Positions 1 to 63,869 of a DNA stretch of 64,000 nt are shown piece after piece (within the stretch, counting starts at the first letter, position 1; each line of letters begins with the position of its first letter). The position numbers and the translations under genes are program-made. Under the pieces are notes generated by a model. It was not told the origin of the DNA. It did not search any database and saw nothing but the letters and a program-made list of their open reading frames with translations. Source of the stretch: Prochlorococcus sp. AG-363-J23 (GTDB lineage Bacteria; Cyanobacteriota; Cyanobacteriia; PCC-6307; Cyanobiaceae); contig QCFN01000001.1 in assembly GCA_003280245.1 (NCBI GenBank), forward strand, positions 24,300 to 88,299, read 5' to 3'.

Positions 1-1292
1 TGACTCAAGTTTTTTAATAATTTTGAAGGAGGTTTTTGCTCTGCAAATAAGACTTTCACATTTTCTTCTTTTAGCTCCCCTAATACTGTGGCAATAGTCT
101 GAGGCCTAAGGCTCCCTAAATAACCCATAAAATCTAATAAGCTAATAGTTTTCAAACCAAATGCATCTCCGTAGTATTCCATAGCTTTGTGCTTAGAAAC
201 GATCGTCCTTTGATTAGAAGGGATTGTGGATACTTGTCTTTGAGTCCATTGATCTAAATCTTCTAAAAGAGAATTAATAGATTTAGATCTTTCACTTACA
301 ATTTTCCTATTTTCTCTATCAAAAAATGAAATGTTCTTCTTGATGCTTCTAGAAATAATATTTCCCATCTTGATAATGTTATGAGGATCATGCCAGATAT
401 GAGGATCGGCTCCTCCATGGTTATGGTGATGATGATCACCGCCATCGTCTGGAATTTGGGCTATCGGTTCGACATCATTGCCTGAAACATCTTTAAAGAA
501 ATGCTCATCGGCTTCAAACTCAAAGGGCATATGCTCAGTAAAGAATACATATTTACCAGCTTTTTTAATTTCTACATTGAATGTTGTGCTTTCTTTCCTC
601 TCATTAAATGTGAGAACATATGCTTTTTCCTGTGCAACAAGTTGATCATTATTACGTTTAAATTCTGAATTGTTAGATTCTAATAATTCTTCAGCAAGTT
701 CTTCTGATGCTTCAATATCACCAGACTTGAGAATGACCATTTTCATAGCAGGGTCGGCATAGTCTCCATCGACTTTTGCAAAAGACCATGTGTAGGTTCC
801 TGGTGAAAGTTCAAAGACACCAGCCCATTCAAAAGCTTCTTCTCCATGACCTTTGCCGTGGTCATCATGATCGTCATGCTTCGCAGATGAGAGTTCATCA
901 TGGTCGTCATGGTCATCAATCTCTATTGCACTTACACCGACAACAGTAGTTATGGGTTTATCTTGCCAATTTTTTATTGAAGGAGTCATCTCTTGACCAA
1001 GGGTGAAAACTTGACTTGCATTATTTAGAGCTTGAGCCTGTCTAGGAGAAAATTTGACATCATGAACGTCTACTTTTCTGCCAATCAAACACTTAACTTG
1101 CTTTGAAGGTGGAGCAATTGCCTTGACCAAGTCACAGACCAGCGGCTCTATTGCAACTATTGGTTTCTCCTTGGCTTGTACTCCTTGAGCCGTTCCAGAT
1201 AAAAAAACCGCTCCTGCTAAAAGATAAGTTTTTAAAATTGATCTATTGATCGAAAGCCTTCTCTGGCTTGATTGCCCTAAGTGATCTGGCAT
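1..1292 (-). CDS. znuA: Zn/Mn-family (TroA/cluster-9) ABC transporter periplasmic substrate-binding protein, ZnuA-like. The C-terminus runs off the window. It carries a His/Asp-rich loop plus an inserted domain of about 125 aa.
   Basis: Own translation of the minus strand from the ATG at 1292 gives MPDHLGQSSQRRLSINRSILKTYLLAGAVFLSGTAQG (signal peptide) ... DDHDDHDELSSAKHDDHDDHGKGHG ... DDGGDHHHHNHGGADPHIWHDPHN. The frame stays open to position 1, so it is absent from the ORF track (no stop in the window). It is divergent from znuC/znuB. Confidence 0.8.
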   Translation of the reverse strand, partial: MPDHLGQSSQRRLSINRSILKTYLLAGAVFLSGTAQGVQAKEKPIVAIEPLVCDLVKAIAPPSKQVKCLIGRKVDVHDVKFSPRQAQALNNASQVFTLGQEMTPSIKNWQDKPITTVVGVSAIEIDDHDDHDELSSAKHDDHDDHGKGHGEEAFEWAGVFELSPGTYTWSFAKVDGDYADPAMKMVILKSGDIEASEELAEELLESNNSEFKRNNDQLVAQEKAYVLTFNERKESTTFNVEIKKAGKYVFFTEHMPFEFEADEHFFKDVSGNDVEPIAQIPDDGGDHHHHNHGGADPHIWHDPHNIIKMGNIISRSIKKNISFFDRENRKIVSERSKSINSLLEDLDQWTQRQVSTIPSNQRTIVSKHKAMEYYGDAFGLKTISLLDFMGYLGSLRPQTIATVLGELKEENVKVLFAEQKPPSKLLKNLS

Positions 1293-1318
1293 GCGAAGCG
1301 AACGAGTGTTGATACAAA

Positions 1319-1333
1319 CGATAATGGTTATCA
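1319..1333. promoter_or_regulatory. Candidate Zur box in the znuA/znuC divergent promoter
   Basis: The sequence is cGATAAtggTTATCA, a 6-3-6 palindrome. It lies in the 90-bp gap between the znuA start (1292) and the likely znuC ATG (1383). It matches the cyanobacterial Zur consensus TGATAATNATTATCA and shares 14 of 15 positions with the site at 5503-5517. Confidence 0.6.
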
Positions 1334-1382
1334 TTTCTAATCGGCAAGCATATTGTTGTTTCATCTGGAAATACTCTTATCC

Positions 1383-2087
1383 ATGGCCAGTTTGATTGCT
1401 GAAAATTTGACATATTCCTATTCAAGGCAAAGTCATCTTGTTTTGGATGAGGTCTCAGTTGAGCTCAAACCTGGAACTATGACTGCACTTGTTGGTCCAA
1501 ATGGTGCTGGTAAGTCAACATTGTTAGGTCTACTCCAAGGCCGCAGTAAGCCTAATAAAGGTGAAATCACCATTGATGGTCATCCGTTGTTTGATAGTCG
1601 ATCCCAAGTTGCTCTAATGCCTCAAAGAGGAAGGTTGAACTGGAATTTTCCAATTACTGTTGAAGGCTTGGTCTCTTTAGGGCGAGTGAATCATTCAAGA
1701 TCAACATGTTGTGAACTAGAAGCTGCACTACAAAGAGTGGGAATATCTGATTTAGCAAATAGGAGACTCGATTCCTTGTCTGGCGGGCAACAACAAAGAG
1801 CATTACTTGCAAAAACTTTAATGACTCCATCAAAAATAATTCTTCTTGATGAACCTTGTTCTGCATTAGATCCACCTGCAAGAGAAGATTTTCTATTAAT
1901 CATTCGCCAGCTGGCTGATGCTGGGCTATCACTTTTTATTAGTAGTCACGATTGGGGGATATCTCTAAACGCGTATGACAAGGTCGTTGCTTTGGATAAG
2001 CATGTTTTGGCTTCTGGTACTCCTGAAGTAGTGAAAGAAAAACTTGATTCATTTAGCTGTATGCATAGTAGTTATTGCCGTGCTTAA
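1383..2087 (+). CDS. znuC: Zinc ABC transporter ATP-binding protein
   Basis: Walker A GPNGAGKST, signature LSGGQQQR and Walker B ILLDEP are present. The track ORF starts at a TTG (1353). The ATG at 1383 (MASLIAENLTYSY) is the more likely start. Confidence 0.85.
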   Translation: MASLIAENLTYSYSRQSHLVLDEVSVELKPGTMTALVGPNGAGKSTLLGLLQGRSKPNKGEITIDGHPLFDSRSQVALMPQRGRLNWNFPITVEGLVSLGRVNHSRSTCCELEAALQRVGISDLANRRLDSLSGGQQQRALLAKTLMTPSKIILLDEPCSALDPPAREDFLLIIRQLADAGLSLFISSHDWGISLNAYDKVVALDKHVLASGTPEVVKEKLDSFSCMHSSYCRA

Positions 2088-2880
2088 TGTTTACTCAACC
2101 CTTGAAACTTGGTGGTTAATTCCTTTTTGCGTAATTCTATTGACAGGAATACTTTGCCCGGCCATGGGGACTATATTAATTACCCATAAGCGACTTCTGC
2201 AAGTTAATTTAATCTCTCATTGTGTCCTGCCAGGATTGGTTTTGGCAGTAGCACTTGGCGTTAGTCCTTCCATAGGTGGTGTTTTTAGTGGGTTGTTTGG
2301 ATCTCTTGCAGCAGAAGCATTGACCAACAAAAAAAATGAAAATTATGAAGCAATAATGAATACAATTCTTGCTAGTTCTCTTGGTCTTGGTGTTCTTCTT
2401 ATACCTCTTCTTGGAATTAGGATCGATTTAGAATCTGTTCTATTTGGTGATTTATTAACTGCAAATTTAGGCGACTTATCAAGAACTATTATTTCTTTCT
2501 TAGTATTTATTTCTTTGATACTTTTTGGTTACGAAAAGCTTGTACATATTGGATTAGACCAGGAAGGGGCTTCTGACAGTGGCATAAAAGTATCTTATTT
2601 AAATTTACTGCTTGGTCTTACGAGTGCGCTTGTTATTGTTAGTTCAATGTCTGCAATTGGAGTCATTCTTGTAATTGCTTTGCTTTCCGCTCCTGCCTTA
2701 TTAGGTCTGCAACAAGCCCCATCTTTACGGGTTGCTATGGTTAGATCTGCAATCTTTGGATCTTTAATATCAGTTTTAGGTTTTTTGCTTGCGATTGCTT
2801 TCAATATGTCTCCAGGTCCCCTTGTTGCTGTTTTATGCATTCTCTTAATAGGATTGTTACCTAGAAAAAGAAATAATTGA
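2044..2880 (+). CDS. znuB: Zinc ABC transporter permease (ABC-3 family)
   Basis: Polytopic hydrophobic protein immediately after, and overlapping, znuC. The start is uncertain: TTG at 2044 or a GTG near 2079 that overlaps the znuC stop. Confidence 0.8.
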   Translation: MIHLAVCIVVIAVLNVYSTLETWWLIPFCVILLTGILCPAMGTILITHKRLLQVNLISHCVLPGLVLAVALGVSPSIGGVFSGLFGSLAAEALTNKKNENYEAIMNTILASSLGLGVLLIPLLGIRIDLESVLFGDLLTANLGDLSRTIISFLVFISLILFGYEKLVHIGLDQEGASDSGIKVSYLNLLLGLTSALVIVSSMSAIGVILVIALLSAPALLGLQQAPSLRVAMVRSAIFGSLISVLGFLLAIAFNMSPGPLVAVLCILLIGLLPRKRNN

Positions 2881-3020
2881 TCTATTTTCTGTAATTAGAC
2901 CTACGGAGTTATTGGCTTGCTTTTAAACTAAAAGGCAGAGCTTTGTGCATGAAAAACCTCTGACTAAGCAGGGTTGTAACAAGGTTGGAGTAGAAGGAGG
3001 ATTTAGCGGTTGTATTCGAT

Positions 3021-4100
3021 TTATGAAAATCCTTTAGGAGATGTTTTTATGCGATTTTTAAAATCCCAAACATTAATTCCTCCGTTTGCATTAACGGCTG
3101 CTAGAGCACAGTCATCAGGTCGCCAGGCAATTGCTTCGACACGGCCTCCTACGAATGCACCGCCAAGTGGCTCACCATGACCATTCTTCTGGAGAAGCCA
3201 TACAAAAACCGAACCATCCCTTGATCCAGAGGCTAATAGTGACCCTCGATTGGAGAAAGCGAGGCTGGAAATCGCTCCAATGTGAAGGTCTAACTCTCCT
3301 GGTACCGTTCCTTCAGGACCATTACCTTGAAAACTCCAAACTGTTATTCGTTCACCTCCTCCAGTGGCAAGAACCATGCCGGTTTGATCAAATGCTAGTT
3401 GACTTGGCTTGCCTGGATACCCAGTCATCTCAGCATCTTGCGCAGTTGAACGTCTCCAGAAATGAACAGAATTGTCTTGACTACCGCAAGCCACAATGTC
3501 GCCATCAGGGCTAAGCACCATCGACACGAGTGAGCCTTGCCATTCCAGCTTCTGATTGACCTGGTCACGAATTACATCGTAAAAAGTGACTCGGCCGTAG
3601 CATGCAGTTGCTAATTCATTCGACTTTGACCAAGCAACCGCACTGACAGTACTCAGATGTTTATCTGAGCGCCAATGTTCTTTTCCATCAGCACCAAAAA
3701 CATAGACGTAATGCGAAAAGACTACGGCTAAGAATTGTCCATCTGGTGACCATTGGAGATGTTCGACCCATCCTTTACCGATTTCCAATGCCTTATTTGA
3801 CTCACCTTCTTTACTCTTCCAAATCAGAACACGTCCATCCTGACCTGCAGTAGCAAAGATATGTCCATCTGGATGAATGGACATTGCAAGTATGCCACCT
3901 TCATGGACTTCCTTTCGATGCCAAAGGGTGGTTCCAGACTTGCCTTCAAAGGCATAAAGGCCTCCTGCAGCATCACCCACCAAAAAAGCATTACCTTCTA
4001 GTGCCCATCCGCAAACAATGACATAATCGGCGACTTCAGTACTCCACCCCTCGTGAAGCATACCCCGACCCTGAGGGCCGAGTTCTCTTATGTCAGGCAT
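3021..4100 (-). CDS. WD40-repeat beta-propeller protein
   Basis: The protein contains reiterated units of the form DG.(I/L)A(T/S)(A/G)(G/S)(Q/R)DG.V..W, for example ATAGQDGRVLIWK, ACGSQDNSVHFWR and ASGSRDGSVFVWL. Its ATG (4098-4100) lies inside the last codons of the upstream COG0523 reading frame. Confidence 0.85.
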   Translation of the reverse strand: MPDIRELGPQGRGMLHEGWSTEVADYVIVCGWALEGNAFLVGDAAGGLYAFEGKSGTTLWHRKEVHEGGILAMSIHPDGHIFATAGQDGRVLIWKSKEGESNKALEIGKGWVEHLQWSPDGQFLAVVFSHYVYVFGADGKEHWRSDKHLSTVSAVAWSKSNELATACYGRVTFYDVIRDQVNQKLEWQGSLVSMVLSPDGDIVACGSQDNSVHFWRRSTAQDAEMTGYPGKPSQLAFDQTGMVLATGGGERITVWSFQGNGPEGTVPGELDLHIGAISSLAFSNRGSLLASGSRDGSVFVWLLQKNGHGEPLGGAFVGGRVEAIAWRPDDCALAAVNANGGINVWDFKNRIKTSPKGFS

Positions 4101-4290
4101 TTGTCGAACCCACTTTGCAAGGCCTCTTCATCAAGGTTCCGACCGATGAACACGAGTTGATTTCGGCGAGGTTCATTACCCCACTCCCTATCAGGCTGTG
4201 AGGTAAAGAGCATATGTACACCTTGAAAAACTATTCTCCGCGGCTCGCCTGCATAACTAATAAACCCCTTTGTCCTAAAATATCTACACC
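4088..4290 (-). pseudogene. Displaced C-terminal remainder of the COG0523 CobW_C domain (other frame)
   Basis: The 76-aa ORF 4088..4318 reads ...RTKGFISYAGEPRRIVFQGVHMLFTSQPDREWGNEPRRNQLVFIGRNLDEEALQSGFDKC. This is the canonical end of CobW_C. It joins frame A right after ...EKGVDI if one extra base is assumed in the homopolymer at 4277-4280. Confidence 0.6.
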
Positions 4291-5469
4291 TTTTTCTGAG
4301 AGGAGACGCCCTAACCACTTATTGAGTTTTTCTGGATCGACATCGCCTAATCGCTCGATAGCAATTGAGCCCACTTCATCATCGTGTTCGTGTTGTGCTA
4401 CCCAAGTTCGCTCTGCTATAGGAGGAATTAAAAGATCATTCTGTTGATTACTTCCTGACTCAGAAACTGAAGTATCCATTCTTCTCACTTTGATATCGAA
4501 TTCCTCGGCCGTGTGCTGAGTGAATAAACCAAGATGTCCAGATTTTTCAACTTCAAGCGAAAACGACTTGCGCCCCTCGGACTGCAGCTGAAGGTTCACA
4601 TGCTTGTTCAGTGGGATTTTGTCACCTGGATGTAGGAGTTCAGCAGATTCAGCGTAAAGTCGCACACATGATTCTGCACCTTCATTGAGAGATTCTTCGT
4701 CTGTGCCTTGGTCAGCTACAACGACGAGAGACATCATCGGGTCAGGCCCCTCTTCGAGACTAACTTCGTAACGACCAGGCTCAAGTTGAAAAACACCCGT
4801 CCACTCAAATGGATACTCTGGTTCTAGGAAGCTGGGGCGGCGTTCCAAAACCTGGTCAAGGTCAAAAGCACCGAGGTTTAGAACAGTTTCAACAGAGACA
4901 TCCGCTTGCTTACTACGTACGACACGCGCCATACGGTTCATGTCACGTAGTCGTGCTTCAAGAGTATCGAGCGACTCATCAGAAACGAGATCAGTTTTGT
5001 TCAGAACCAGTACGTCGGCAAATGCAACCTGCTCGGAACTCTCATCACTGCGTCCCAATTGCTGATCAATATGAGCTGCATCAACAAGCGTAACGATCCC
5101 ATCGAGTGAAAATTCTGAACGAATTTCATCGTCCATGAAGAATGTTTGAGCAACAGGACCGGGGTCGGCAAGCCCCGTGGTCTCAACCAATACATAATCG
5201 AACTTATCGCGTCTCTTCATGAGGTTCCCAAGTACGCGAATTAGATCGCCTCGAACGGTGCAGCAAATGCATCCGTTGGACATCTCAAAAACCTCTTCGT
5301 CAGCATTGATCACCAGTCCCTGATCAATTCCAACTTCACCATATTCATTCTCAATAACAGCAATTCGTTTACCGTGTTCTTCGCTAAGAATCTTGTTAAG
5401 AAGAGTCGTCTTTCCAGAACCAAGAAATCCAGTAAGGATTGTTACGGGTACTTTTTGAGTACCTTTCAT
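4231..5469 (-). CDS. COG0523 (CobW/YjiA/ZigA-like) metallochaperone GTPase, as far as the first frame stays open
   Basis: P-loop GFLGSGKTT, metal motif GCICCT and Walker B/G4 LVLNKTD are present, followed by the start of a CobW_C domain (HEHDDEVGSIAIE...KLNKWLGRLL). The frame ends prematurely inside that domain. Confidence 0.8.
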   Translation of the reverse strand: MKGTQKVPVTILTGFLGSGKTTLLNKILSEEHGKRIAVIENEYGEVGIDQGLVINADEEVFEMSNGCICCTVRGDLIRVLGNLMKRRDKFDYVLVETTGLADPGPVAQTFFMDDEIRSEFSLDGIVTLVDAAHIDQQLGRSDESSEQVAFADVLVLNKTDLVSDESLDTLEARLRDMNRMARVVRSKQADVSVETVLNLGAFDLDQVLERRPSFLEPEYPFEWTGVFQLEPGRYEVSLEEGPDPMMSLVVVADQGTDEESLNEGAESCVRLYAESAELLHPGDKIPLNKHVNLQLQSEGRKSFSLEVEKSGHLGLFTQHTAEEFDIKVRRMDTSVSESGSNQQNDLLIPPIAERTWVAQHEHDDEVGSIAIERLGDVDPEKLNKWLGRLLSEKGVDILGQRGLLVMQASRGE

Positions 5470-5502
5470 AGCCTTAAAAGCAGAAAAACAGCTCGATTAT
5501 AT

Positions 5503-5517
5503 TGATAATGGTTATCA
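5503..5517. promoter_or_regulatory. Candidate Zur box upstream of the COG0523-WD40 operon
   Basis: The sequence is TGATAAtggTTATCA, with perfect 6-bp arms. It lies 34-48 bp upstream of the COG0523 ATG (5469). Confidence 0.6.
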
Positions 5518-5689
5518 TAATCATGCTTATTTCCTTTTCAAGACGTGCTTCACCCAAGCTTTCTTGGGTAGCAAATATGTATAAAATCTAGATTTTGCGT
5601 TTTTTATCTCATAGGTTAATGCCAACTTTGAGCTGCTCGGCAAGCTCTAAAACTCAGATCGTCATTTCGCTACTGGATATTGATCGAAT

Positions 5690-5727
5690 GATTCAGCCAA
5701 ATCTCTCGTCTGAAATCTGCCTGATAT
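5690..5727 (+). repeat. Candidate left att-like direct repeat
   Basis: GATTCAGCCAAATCTCT...GCCTGATAT here is colinear with GGTTTGCCAGAATCTCT...GCCTGATAT at 10261-10292. Confidence 0.3.
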
Positions 5728-5735
5728 GTAGAGAC

Positions 5736-8081
5736 TTAGAAGCACTCCAACCTTTTTAAGGTGCTCTCTATTTCCGTTTTCGCTATATCTTTCCCCATTG
5801 CTTTGATCCATCTTTGGATTTCTGGCACTGTACTTTTTCCATTCTCTAAGGCAGCTTCAACCATATCTTTTATATAGCAAAGCCCTCCTTTCTGCATGGT
5901 GTGCATAGTGTGCAGGGTTTTTTCTGAGACTTCTTTTATATCTTCTTTTTTAAATTCTTTCTCTTTAGAAGAAAAGTTAGAGAGATGACCCTGCATACCC
6001 TGCATAGGTAAATGAGATGCACTTCCCCGCCTTGGTTCTGGTGGTGAAGGGTTGGAATGCAGGGTCGGGCTGGGTGCAGGGTCTAACCCTGCATCTGCAA
6101 CTTTGAGTCCGAAGAAAGAGGCCAGGTCAAAGTCTTTCAATGGACTGATTTTGTAGATGATCCCTGCACTACTTCTCTGACTCTGCACTTTTGGAATCTT
6201 TTTAATTTGGAGCCCAAAGTTTTTCTGACTGGGCTTTTTTATGCCTTGCTCAACAGTCCATTCGACAAATTCGTTATATAGCTTTTGGGCTTGTCTTTCT
6301 CCACCTTCCTCACATTTTTCAAGAATGAATCGAAGGTATGGATTCTGATCGAGGGCGTTTTCTATAGAAGCTTCTCTAACTGCTTTAACTTCTCCTCTTT
6401 TCTTGAGAGTGTTTTGCATCTCGGGTTCGAGCATGCTCCAGCACCATTGAAAGATTCCCTCAATTTCATCTCGTAATTTTTGTTTTAAGGACGGATCTGG
6501 TGAAGCTGCTGATCTTTCAATTCTGAAAGTAACCATCCTTCTAGTAAGACCTTCTTGCCCACCTCCACTTATGGAAGGTTGGTCATTAAATGCTCTCCAA
6601 ATAACTACTCCTAGCCTTGCATCGAAAGGATCAACGTATAGGCGTTTTACAGGTACAAGCTCATTACTAACTATTGAATTGAACATTCCTGGATCTTTAT
6701 AATGTCCGCTTGCATCGGCGTCTATACCGATCTTTTTTCCTATTAATTTAAATCGTTCAGTGTCCGAGGAAAAGGTAGCCGCTCTTGCTGTTCCAACAGC
6801 TTCTTTTCCGACTACATGTTGGAGGACTTCCAGCAAAGTTCCTTTTCCGCATCCTTTAGGCCCGTATAGATCAAAGAAGACTTCTAAGAGAAAAGGTTCA
6901 TCAATTTTCTTTGCACTAACTGACCAACGAAATGCGCTCCTAAGTAATTGAATAACTTCCTCATCTCCTTTAAAAGTTTCTGCTAGGAACTTCAACCAGC
7001 GTGGACATTTAGCTTTTGGGTCATAGTTGAATTTGAAGCTATGAGTCAGATAATCATCTCTTCTATGGAGTGGCTCAAATTTCTGGGCATTTAGGTCATA
7101 TGTCCCATTTTTAAAGCTCATTAAGTGGGACTGATTCCATGTTTGGTGCTTTAGGCGAGCTAGTAGTTCATCCTTCACTCCATTTAAAAGATTGCGGCTT
7201 CTTTTATCCCAAAGCATTAAATCCATCCATTCATGAAGAGGTAAATCCAGAGCAGTTTTTGGATTCTCTTCTAAATACTCCCAATGAGTTCCCGCCCATT
7301 TGTATAACCCGATAAGAGGGTTAAAGGCATAGTCTTTTTTAAAAATTGGAGTCGCTGTAACTGCCTTGTAATGTGTTTCTGATGTCCCATTAGGCTCAGG
7401 TTTCCAGGTCTTAAAGGGTTGAGCTACATCAACCAATTTCTGAAAAGCTTCTCTTCCGTGGCGACAAATAAAGTCATCGCCTCCATTCTTTGAGCCATCT
7501 ATTTCGCAAGGCAAAAGCACTATTCGCACAATTGCCCCTTTCTCTTTCAATGCATTGCAGAGACCATCCAGAGCATTTCGAACGGTGGTTTTAGTAGTTA
7601 CGTCACTATCAAAAACTATAAAAACTTCTCTCTTATCCCAATGAAGTTTCTCTAGTTCAGGCAGAAATCCTGAGCGATTATCCCTCCAGCAATCAACTCC
7701 ACTCAGTCCAATGGTTGGGAATCCGTTATGAGTTAATGAATCCGCTTTCTTCTCACCTTCACCAATAAAACTCCTCTTATGAGGTTTAAGAGAATTCTTT
7801 GGAAGTAGCGGAGAAAAATATGGTCTACATCCTCCATTTTTTGGAGATAGATATTTTGCATCTTCTGTCTGTCCAGGGTCAGGTTTGAGTCGATAGAAGG
7901 GTTTTCCATTGTGCAAATAAGGTTTTCCTTCTGGATCTTTGAAAAGAACAATCCATCCTGAATATCCATAACCAGTGAGATTCTTAGCCTCACTTTTCGT
8001 GACGCTGCGATAGTCCAAGAGATGATGAACCGACTCTGGGATTCCAGACTCAACTAGTTCTTGTATATGTTTTTTCAGCAT
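5736..8081 (-). CDS. Replicative primase-helicase: Toprim/DUF3854-like N-terminus plus P4/D5-family NTPase C-terminus
   Basis: Toprim-like motifs GEGEKKADSL and VFIVFDSD are followed by Walker A GPKGCGKGTLLEVL. The 781-aa size and architecture are typical of phage, plasmid and satellite primases. Confidence 0.7.
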   Translation of the reverse strand: MLKKHIQELVESGIPESVHHLLDYRSVTKSEAKNLTGYGYSGWIVLFKDPEGKPYLHNGKPFYRLKPDPGQTEDAKYLSPKNGGCRPYFSPLLPKNSLKPHKRSFIGEGEKKADSLTHNGFPTIGLSGVDCWRDNRSGFLPELEKLHWDKREVFIVFDSDVTTKTTVRNALDGLCNALKEKGAIVRIVLLPCEIDGSKNGGDDFICRHGREAFQKLVDVAQPFKTWKPEPNGTSETHYKAVTATPIFKKDYAFNPLIGLYKWAGTHWEYLEENPKTALDLPLHEWMDLMLWDKRSRNLLNGVKDELLARLKHQTWNQSHLMSFKNGTYDLNAQKFEPLHRRDDYLTHSFKFNYDPKAKCPRWLKFLAETFKGDEEVIQLLRSAFRWSVSAKKIDEPFLLEVFFDLYGPKGCGKGTLLEVLQHVVGKEAVGTARAATFSSDTERFKLIGKKIGIDADASGHYKDPGMFNSIVSNELVPVKRLYVDPFDARLGVVIWRAFNDQPSISGGGQEGLTRRMVTFRIERSAASPDPSLKQKLRDEIEGIFQWCWSMLEPEMQNTLKKRGEVKAVREASIENALDQNPYLRFILEKCEEGGERQAQKLYNEFVEWTVEQGIKKPSQKNFGLQIKKIPKVQSQRSSAGIIYKISPLKDFDLASFFGLKVADAGLDPAPSPTLHSNPSPPEPRRGSASHLPMQGMQGHLSNFSSKEKEFKKEDIKEVSEKTLHTMHTMQKGGLCYIKDMVEAALENGKSTVPEIQRWIKAMGKDIAKTEIESTLKRLECF

Positions 8082-10312: not shown

Positions 10313-10385
10313 GGGGCCATAGCTCAGCTGGTAGAGCACCTGCATGGCATGCAGGGGGTCAGCGGTTCGAGTCCGCTTGGCTCCA
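10313..10385 (+). tRNA. tRNA-Ala (anticodon GGC), no encoded CCA
   Basis: Folded by hand: GGGGCCA-TA-GCTC-AGCTGGTA-GAGC-A-CCTGC-ATGGCAT-GCAGG-GGGTC-AGCGG-TTCGAGT-CCGCT-TGGCTCC-A. The G3:U70 alanine identity pair is present and all four stems are perfect. Confidence 0.9.
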
Positions 10386-10845
10386 CTAAGATGTTTGTTT
10401 ATCAATCAAACTTTTATTCTATTTATTATTTTAATCTACTAATAGAGTCAATTATTAACTAATTAATTCTATTTACCAGAATAAAATCTAACAAATACAA
10501 AAGGGACCACCGAGCTATTCGCCTATAGCTGTTCAATCTATCCTCTAATTCCAAGTTTTTACTTAAAGAAATTAGATAATCAACGGAATCAGAAATATTA
10601 TCGATGTATTATTAATAATGTATTAATATCTAGTCAATAACTCTAAAATGTTTCCATTTTATGATTGTAGGTATTGCTATATCATATAACTTATAATTTT
10701 TAATTATTCGAAGCTATCCGATTTCTGATTACTCGTTTCAATTATTTTGGAAATTGTTAAGATATCGAATCGTTTGTAAGTTAATAATTTTGACTTGCAA
10801 TGATCCCAAGAAGATGTAGGTTTAATAAAATTACAATTTTTTCCT

Positions 10846-63266: not shown

Positions 63267-63869
63267 TCAGTTTGGTAGTTGTTGCAACAAAAAACTAGTA
63301 ACTGTTTCCACTCCCTTTTTTGTGCGGAGATTGGTGAAACACCATGGACGATTGCCTCTCATTAAAGATGTATCTCTTTCCATTACCTCTAGGTTTGCTC
63401 CAACCATTTCGGCAAGATCAGTTTTATTAATTATGAGTAAGTCTGAGCGAGTAATTCCAGGGCCTCCTTTCCTAGGAATTTTGTCTCCAGCCGCTACATC
63501 TATTACATAAATGCATATATCGACGAGTTCAGGACTGAAACTTGCCGCAAGGTTGTCCCCACCACTTTCCACAAATATGAGATCGAGATTTGGGAAGAGT
63601 TCTTCTAATTCTTCAACAGCTGCTCTATTAATTGAACAATCCTCACGAATAGCTGTATGAGGGCATCCACCTGTTTCTACTCCTCGAATGCGTTCTGGTT
63701 CTAAGGCTCCAGCAGTAGTTAAAAATTTTGCATCTTCTTGGGTATAGATGTCATTGGTTACGACTGCTAATTGGAGTCGATTCCTTAATTTTTTACAAAG
63801 GACTTCTACAAGTGCAGTTTTGCCGGAACCAACTGGACCTGCTACACCAACTCTTAACTTGCTTGTCAT
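63267..63869 (-). CDS. ureG: Urease accessory GTPase UreG
   Basis: Contains [12 protein letters not shown] and a CPH motif ([11 protein letters not shown]). The ATG at 63869 ([11 protein letters not shown]) overlaps the ureF stop (TAATG). The track start is an upstream TTG inside ureF. Confidence 0.92.

Follow-up and report, generated by a model that had tools for sequence, protein, structure and literature searches.

What a WD40 protein does beside a COG0523 GTPase is the question raised by a two-gene locus in the DNA analyzed here, a stretch of 64,000 nucleotides from Prochlorococcus sp. AG-363-J23 (referred to below as the window). COG0523 zinc chaperones are widespread and few of their clients are known; a propeller that is strictly co-inherited and translationally overlapped with one COG0523 subfamily would be a good handle on how that subfamily finds its targets. 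Moreover, zinc economy matters for Prochlorococcus in zinc-poor oceans. We consider it likely that the locus represents a known and widely conserved zinc-limitation module in an arrangement specific to its lineage: a two-gene Zur-controlled operon in which a ZNG1-like (subfamily 5) COG0523 zinc-metallochaperone GTPase is encoded together with a cytoplasmic WD40 protein of eight blades.

Both genes lie on the minus strand. The upstream one (4088..5469, ATG at 5469–5467) would encode a COG0523 G3E GTPase of 460 aa if intact and is split here into fragments at 4231..5469 (412 aa, cobW domain and insert) and 4088..4318 (CobW_C), both on the same strand. Its product scored 208 bits against PF02492 (cobW; cut-off, 20.7) and carries Walker A (GSGKTT), CxCC (GCICC), ETTG, and NKxD (NKTD) motifs, which are invariant in 12 orthologues. 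In the window, the CobW_C domain (74 bits) falls in a different frame from the cobW domain, whereas all 11 relatives have it in frame (99.6 bits in locus L008); 11 loci carry an intact orthologue of 460 aa. Scores stayed below the curated NCBIfam cut-offs for ZigA (198 vs 600), PRK11537 (257 vs 361), and CobW (216 vs 332), and YjiA was the only solved relative found by sequence (E 2e-62). Between the GTPase domain and CobW_C lies an insert of about 110–150 aa (residues ~205–350; 4495..4818, minus strand), which is not His-rich, gave no matches in a Pfam search, and forms a beta-sandwich in a model with a pLDDT of 83. With this insert, the downstream WD40 gene, and the znuABC neighborhood, the protein appears to belong to subfamily 5, cyanobacterial branch 1a, as judged against the description in Barnett et al. 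(PMC3323870). The downstream gene (3021..4100, minus strand) encodes a 359-aa protein scoring 107 bits against PF00400 (cut-off, 27). In the window the pair runs convergent to znuB (2044..2880, plus strand; Pfam ABC-3), which follows znuC (1353..2087, plus strand; Pfam ABC_tran) and the divergent znuA (3..1364, minus strand; Pfam ZnuA), the last running past the window edge. The pair thus stands apart from znuA-X, with a promoter and a Zur-like box to itself; in loci L006 and L007, it is likewise no longer downstream of znuA-X. The 108-aa ORF 'X' gave no matches in a Pfam search, and a 107-aa ORF at the same position in a Gemmatimonadetes MAG showed no similarity to the Prochlorococcus 'X' by BLASTP.

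The two genes are joined without any intergenic gap. As the sequence-only reading had claimed, with coordinates and strings that proved correct, the COG0523 stop codon (TAA, 4090–4088) and the WD40 start codon (ATG, 4100–4098) form a 13-nt overlap (4088..4100, minus strand) within AAATGCCTGACATAA. The start is placed 10 nt upstream of the stop, inside the last four COG0523 sense codons, and the WD40 start codon shares its TG with the conserved Cys codon at the C-terminus of COG0523. This geometry was kept in all loci compared, with ATG or GTG as the start and TAA, TAG, or TGA as the stop, and the overlap was present at every locus across 38% to 99% identity. None of the 18 related loci examined, among them cyanobacterial ones, one from a Gemmatimonadetes MAG, and one from a Myxococcota-labelled MAG, lacked the pair or its overlap; both were present in 11/11 loci from genome contigs, in 3/3 distant contexts, and in 5/5 further cyanobacterial genomes (four complete ones of the Prochlorococcus family and one draft of another family), where the WD40 identity fell to 38%. 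The flanks occurred in at least four different arrangements (znuA-X upstream, znuBC downstream, a second ABC cluster, or a TonB receptor), and the neighborhood check that had been proposed for the pair found it strictly syntenic in every relative examined. Since the WD40 start sits in the overlap and no obvious Shine-Dalgarno sequence was seen for it, WD40 synthesis is probably coupled to translation termination on COG0523, so that the two proteins would be made in matched amounts; the conserved start-in-stop arrangement has, as far as can be read from the DNA, the form that defines a translationally coupled gene pair. The conserved overlap also supports the earlier claim of one transcription unit, as do RNA-library contigs from two studies that span the COG0523/WD40 junction, contigs by themselves being unable to prove one transcript and RNA libraries being open to contamination by DNA. 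A terminator was looked for 3' of the WD40 gene, and none was found.

The reading frame of COG0523 is broken in the window by the loss of a single base. A run of four A at 4277–4280 (T4 on the coding minus strand) stands where relatives and three covering sequencing runs have A5, so that the intact coding-strand form, GAT ATT TTT AGG (T5), is here without one T. Each of the 11 related loci that the genome-contig search yielded has the intact form, and contigs of X1, X5, and X15 (one DNA single-cell run, one DNA metagenome, and one RNA library) carry the extra base at 4276/4277. Because none of the covering runs has the form of the window, the frameshift is specific to this cell or assembly; parts of the stretch that no run contig covers carry no weight in either direction. 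Programmed frameshifting was considered for the T-run and rejected, since the intact frame is encoded directly in every relative and every covering run. The deletion is either an error of the single-cell assembly or an inactivating mutation of very recent origin; a real mutation would also uncouple WD40 translation. If it is real, the module may be a decaying pseudogene here, with COG0523 truncated before CobW_C and the locus being lost after relocation beside an integrative element. The run of A4 in place of A5, its private occurrence, the separation of the pair from znuA-X, and its position beside a D5-primase element that relatives do not have are consistent with such decay. However, no further lesion was seen: outside the frameshift, COG0523 shares 98% identity with intact orthologues, the WD40 reading frame is open throughout, and the perfect operator described below speaks for recent selection. 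Single-base homopolymer errors, moreover, do occur in amplified single-cell assemblies. We regard decay at this locus as possible but rather doubtful.

The gap upstream of COG0523, which had been singled out as the only promoter-like one, indeed carries a perfect-armed palindrome of the string and at the position claimed. This box, TGATAATGGTTATCA (5503..5517), has the form TGATAA-N3-TTATCA with both 6-nt arms perfect and lies 33 nt upstream of the COG0523 ATG; against the 7-1-7 consensus TGATAAT-N-ATTATCA, it matches all 14 specified positions but one (G for A at position 9). Its designation as a Zur-type operator is supported by its identity to the box CGATAATGGTTATCA in the znuA/znuC divergent promoter (1319..1333). 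The 14-mer GATAATGGTTATCA occurs in exactly two copies in the 1.31 Mb assembly, both at this locus (5504–5517 and 1320–1333), and the box is far beyond chance occurrence; at two mismatches, the pattern (9 found vs 7.9 expected) is no longer distinguishable from chance. A third near-copy (G000:C10:23462) lies inside a 546-aa ORF and probably arose by chance. The arms also match the published cyanobacterial Zur sites of the COG0523-5-WD40 operons of MED4, SS120, and Nostoc.

TTGAAA-16-TATGAT (5514..5541, minus strand) is the sole promoter-like match on the coding strand; it is a consensus match only, such matches in the region numbering 2 against 4.0 expected, and its -10 shares four bases with the operator. 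A Zur site likewise overlaps the -10 at znuA/znuC in Synechococcus WH8102 (PMC9337993). Transcription would start from this sigma-70-like promoter, and because the operator overlaps the -10 and equals that of znuA/znuC, zinc-loaded Zur is predicted to repress the pair and zinc starvation to induce it. Against this prediction, only one FUR-family gene, at best a candidate Zur, was found in the assembly (69%-complete genome). Among the genomes compared, the COG0523 operator is perfect in this window only: in five sister genomes with the same promoter DNA (L002, L005, L006, L007, and L010), it is degenerate by 2–4 changes next to invariant adjacent bases, which suggests that the detached pair may be under weak or recent Zur control of its own. 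The second operator, in the znuA/znuC gap, is conserved in L006–L009. An inverted repeat just upstream of the -35, ACCCAAG-N4-CTTGGGT (5552..5569), is invariant in six genomes, while the operator varies among those six. A D5-primase integrative element adjoins the COG0523 promoter, and the relatives are without it.

The sequence-only reading had implied that the pairing was new, which does not hold. Haas et al. in 2009 (PMC2770081, text and Additional file 5) listed "znuC<>znuA-(X)-COG0523-5-WD40" operons behind predicted Zur sites, covering Prochlorococcus MED4 (PMM1031-) and SS120 (Pro1504-), Nostoc all1751, and several alpha-proteobacteria, and placed the WD40-linked prokaryotic COG0523 proteins, like ZNG1, in subfamily 5. 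Barnett et al. in 2012 (PMC3323870) discussed the same co-localization of COG0523 and WD-40 and called the role of the WD-40 protein unclear; Nostoc all1751 also belongs to the listed Anabaena Zur regulon (PMC6103462). The pairing behind a Zur site is already known, and the window holds a Prochlorococcus copy of it. As in the MED4, SS120, and Nostoc operons, the COG0523 subfamily has a non-His insert of ~110–150 aa and a WD40 gene immediately downstream, with TGATAA/TTATCA arms in the Zur box and a znuABC neighborhood. The complete relatives examined have exactly the layouts of these published operons, whereas in the window the pair is off znuA-X under a promoter and box of its own, the COG0523 gene has the frameshift, and the integrative element lies at the promoter. 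What the window adds is thus the rearranged layout, the private frameshift, and a confirmation of the rigidity of the 13-nt overlap across phyla. The opportunity that the pair offers has been visible in the literature since 2009–2012, in cultured strains with intact genes.

Eukaryotic ZNG1 (CBWD) has the same architecture of GTPase, CxCC, and CobW_C, whereas the bacterial COG0523 has the extra beta-sandwich insert. ZNG1 transfers zinc to METAP1, recognizing this client through its own N-terminal motif. To our knowledge, no WD40 partner of ZNG1 has been described, and a literature search for ZNG1 together with WD40 found no paper. YciC/ZagA, ZigA, YeiR, and YjiA are likewise G3E GTPases with CxCC and Zur control (the latter predicted here), and the present COG0523 differs from them in having no His-rich stretch and in having a dedicated WD40 neighbor.

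The WD40 protein is predicted to be an eight-bladed cytoplasmic propeller. Its AlphaFold2 model (pLDDT 88, pTM 0.86) has 32 strands forming eight blades, and the best structure matches (TM-score 0.83–0.84) were the eight-bladed propellers NLE1/Rsa4, TBL1XR1, and ODA16. The N-terminus, MPDIRELGPQGRGMLHEGW, has by eye no hydrophobic signal segment, and the model shows disorder over its first 12 residues. A literature search found no paper characterizing this propeller. Judging from its fold and conservation, it would most likely be a protein-protein scaffold for the chaperone, possibly an adaptor that links the GTPase with clients or with the cytoplasmic side of ZnuBC; a role as an enzyme or a zinc client appears less likely.

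That the propeller itself handles zinc, either as a cytoplasmic buffer or chaperone analogous to AztD or as a zinc-requiring client metalated by COG0523, seems to us improbable. AztD, of the AztABCD system, does provide a precedent for a beta-propeller zinc chaperone: it is an eight-bladed propeller, as is the model here, encoded in a zinc-uptake cluster and often near CobW-family genes (PMC6689063). Several His and Cys residues of the WD40 protein are moreover invariant (H66, C167, C205, H213, and H273). These are, however, mostly at canonical WD-repeat positions (GH; S-x-D-x-S-V-x-F-W type), and no His- or Cys-rich cluster was seen in the protein. AztD is a periplasmic protein that lacks WD40 sequence repeats and passes its zinc on to AztC, a solute-binding protein, whereas the present protein has classic WD40 repeats and no sign of a signal peptide or periplasmic location, and the closest structures are scaffolding WD40s. 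Highly improbable, in our estimation, is that the genes are mere neighbors held by their overlapping stop and start, with the WD40 protein in an unrelated role. In favor of this, WD40 proteins are generic scaffolds, and contact between the two proteins is hypothetical. Prediction of the COG0523-WD40 complex gave an ipSAE of 0.00 in both runs, which speaks neither for nor against binding. No credible COG0523-WD40 fusion was found either. Among the best 150 of 29,054 COG0523 relatives there were no WD40 fusions, the long ones being cobW and CobW_C with extra tails; a 709-aa cobW, CobW_C, and WD40 protein from the WD40-side search, whose COG0523 part begins at residue 84, has at least two out-of-frame stretches and thus represents a frameshift-ridden contig. 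Nevertheless, the pair outlasts at least four flank rearrangements and transfer across phyla, with a WD40 identity of 58–64%, and alpha-proteobacteria carry the same pairing (Haas 2009, PMC2770081). In the sampled cyanobacteria, each strong WD40 orthologue adjoins a COG0523 of this subfamily.

Within the reading of the locus as a zinc-limitation module, we tentatively propose, as a speculation that is on balance unlikely, that the WD40 protein is the dedicated specificity adaptor of a bacterial ZNG1-type (subfamily 5) COG0523, docking the GTPase on its client(s) or on ZnuBC, and that a beta-sandwich insert common to periplasmic ZnuA and cytoplasmic COG0523 serves as the domain for zinc hand-over on either side of the membrane. 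If true, a zinc metallochaperone would for the first time have a defined adaptor. The fold of the insert resembles no specific PDB entry; Foldseek gave a best E of 0.02, and VIA-align gave Z scores of at most 5.4 to GOLD, CBM, and jelly-roll sandwiches. Judged by sequence similarity, the COG0523 insert is homologous to the ZnuA insert (~483–875): the two are 27% identical (E 3e-9, BLASTP), and tblastn repeated the match in three other genomes.

The first part of the window (positions 1–5760) holds five genes, namely znuA (3..1364, on the minus strand and truncated by the window edge), znuC (1353..2087, plus), znuB (2044..2880, plus), a WD40 propeller gene (3021..4100, minus; 359 residues), and a COG0523 GTPase gene on the minus strand, which is split into two frames: 4231..5469 (412 residues, the cobW GTPase domain plus an insert) and 4088..4318 (CobW_C). 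As the sequence-only reading had stated, the second frame and the WD40 gene overlap by 13 nt in AAATGCCTGACATAA, with the stop at 4090–4088 and the WD40 ATG at 4100–4098. For its start codon the WD40 gene combines the final base of one COG0523 codon with the TG of the next, which encodes a conserved C-terminal Cys (C-L-x-stop); across the loci compared the start may be ATG or GTG and the stop TAA, TAG, or TGA, and the spacing stays at 13 nt throughout. Residues 1–12 of the WD40 protein, encoded across the overlap, are disordered in its model.

In all loci inspected for synteny, the two genes stand next to each other and overlap identically. These loci comprise 11 from species-representative genomes (WD40 identity, 58–99%), one each from a Gemmatimonadetes MAG, a 5.4 Mb genome, and a 3.1 Mb genome, four from complete genomes of the Prochlorococcus family, and one from a distant cyanobacterium (38% identity). 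Among 301 sampled cyanobacterial genomes, 7 of the 13 belonging to the same family yielded strong orthologues, against 1 of the other 287. In two studies, metatranscriptome contigs span the boundary between COG0523 and WD40 (run X15, 4016–4333, with no mismatches; run X16, 3982–4270), a pattern consistent with, but no proof of, co-transcription. By inference, the two proteins may be physical partners. The sole apparent COG0523–WD40 fusion proved to be an assembly artefact.

A Zur-type box, TGATAATGGTTATCA (5503–5517), precedes the COG0523 ATG by 33 nt. Just one other copy of its 14-mer GATAATGGTTATCA exists anywhere in the assembly (1.31 Mb, 55 contigs, 69% complete, with Prochlorococcus single-cell genomes as nearest relatives); it lies at 1320–1333, in the promoter from which znuA and znuC diverge and which is the canonical Zur target. 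On the coding strand a single sequence resembles a promoter, TTGAAA-16-TATGAT (5541–5514), and its -10 element overlaps the candidate box; the same geometry is reported where Zur represses znuA/znuC in Synechococcus WH8102 (PMC9337993). The box arms also agree with the Zur sites published for MED4, SS120, and Nostoc all1751. In five sister genomes, which have about 135–190 nt of the COG0523 promoter in common with the window, the box is degenerate (TGGTAACCATTGTCA, TGATAACCATTTTTT, and TGGTAATTATATTCA) and the bases flanking it are invariant; unlike this box, that of znuA/znuC is conserved in four related loci (L006–L009). Directly upstream of the -35 element, an inverted repeat, ACCCAAG-N4-CTTGGGT (5552–5569), is invariant in six genomes, the adjacent box being variable, and could be the site of another regulator or a transcript-end hairpin. 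Collectively, the comparative evidence supports well the earlier proposal of a translationally coupled, Zur-controlled operon, and the observation as a whole was accurate.

The pairing itself, which the sequence-only reading had implied to be new, is a module already described. Haas et al. (2009) reported clustering of the prokaryotic genes of COG0523 subfamily 5 with znuABC and with genes for WD40 proteins, several of them behind Zur sites, and their Additional file 5 lists, each with its site, 'znuC<>znuA-COG0523-5-WD40' in MED4, 'znuC<>znuA-X-COG0523-5-WD40' in SS120, 'all1751 COG0523-5-WD40' in Nostoc, and several alpha-proteobacterial 'znuCBA-COG0523-5-WD40(-sapB)' operons (PMC2770081). 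Barnett et al. (2012) described the same co-localisation in Prochlorococcus and WH8102, together with a non-His insert of about 150 residues, and termed the role of the WD-40 protein unclear (PMC3323870). The Anabaena Zur regulon includes all1751 (PMC6103462). Our literature search found no paper characterising the WD40 propeller.

At the break in the COG0523 gene, the window's coding strand reads GATATTTTAGG, and the four closest relatives read GATATTTTTAGG, encoding D-I-F-R. An intact 460-residue COG0523 protein is encoded in all 11 related loci, and alignment of four public runs to the region showed an extra base at 4276/4277 in a single-cell relative (X1), a seawater metagenome (X5), and the metatranscriptome X15, the window's frameshifted form appearing in none of the four. 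The lesion is therefore private to the window's assembly and reflects either an error in a homopolymer or a recent mutation; programmed frameshifting is unnecessary, because all other copies are in frame. The 3' part of the gene (4200–4360) is mosaic: loci L006–L010 are only about 78–80% identical to the window over the 161-nt segment compared. The mismatches fall in the initial ~115 nt, ending at GAGCCGCGG, beyond which the sequences are almost the same, a pattern suggestive of a recombination tract that ends or begins within COG0523.

The COG0523 protein carries the full set of G3E motifs and scores under the curated cut-offs for ZigA, YjiA-type, and CobW proteins, YjiA being its only solved relative by sequence. 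Its GTPase domain shows extraordinary conservation, residues 6–113 being nearly invariant between Prochlorococcus and the non-cyanobacterial MAGs (overall identity, 74–85%). The insert of about 110 residues (~218–325; window 4495–4818) is homologous to that of the neighbouring ZnuA (window 483–875) at 27% identity (E 3e-9), a match that repeats in three other genomes, and the invariant residues common to both include FEW-GV, DP-M, and H-x3-EF. The insert occurs on both periplasmic ZnuA and cytoplasmic COG0523. Its model shows a beta-sandwich plus a single helix (pLDDT 83), for which no specific PDB counterpart was found. The confident WD40 model (pLDDT 88, pTM 0.86) has 32 strands forming eight blades and best matches eight-bladed scaffolding propellers. 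No signal peptide was detected, the invariant His and Cys residues lie largely at standard WD-repeat positions, and no feature suggests catalysis or a dedicated metal site.

The flanks of the pair vary. The layout in complete genomes is znuBC<>znuA-X-COG0523-WD40, with or without the small ORF X; in the window, L006, and L007 the pair is convergent to znuB, in L002–L004 it adjoins a second ABC cluster, and in the Gemmatimonadetes MAG it follows a TonB receptor gene and an additional cobW gene. In the window's genome, X (108 residues, without a family assignment) has stayed behind znuA, shortly beyond the window edge (G000:C1:23747-24070); the pair has therefore become detached from znuA-X in this lineage. 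In most relatives X is a conserved ORF of 105–108 residues between znuA and COG0523 (L008:4303-4629; L003:4308-4625), with two Cys and one His near the C-terminus and no Pfam or NCBIfam match. In some relatives the WD40 gene is followed downstream by a second, paralogous znuC-like/znuA-like pair enclosing a different palindrome, TGAAAAYGRTTTTCA (L002:9267, L003:9284, L004:9284), possibly an operator for some other regulator of the Fur family; identity in this second set is 59–64% to the window's znuB and znuC and ~35% for the znuA-like gene. Two more cobW-family paralogues occur in the genome, one close to the window end (~63342–63851; G000:C1:87641-88150) and one at G000:C7:11524-12117.

Directly upstream of the COG0523 promoter, a DUF3854/D5_N/DUF5906 primase-helicase gene (5736–8081; 781 residues) has a counterpart in none of the related loci, and homology to relatives stops at ~5617–5665; the region from this gene to tRNA-Ala (10313–10386) fits an integrative element at tRNA-Ala(GGC). 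In two non-cyanobacterial MAGs labelled Myxococcota and Gemmatimonadetes (L012 and L013), COG0523 is 76–79% and WD40 58–64% identical to the Prochlorococcus proteins, values unusually high for cross-phylum orthologues; possible causes are strong constraint, gene transfer, and mis-binning.
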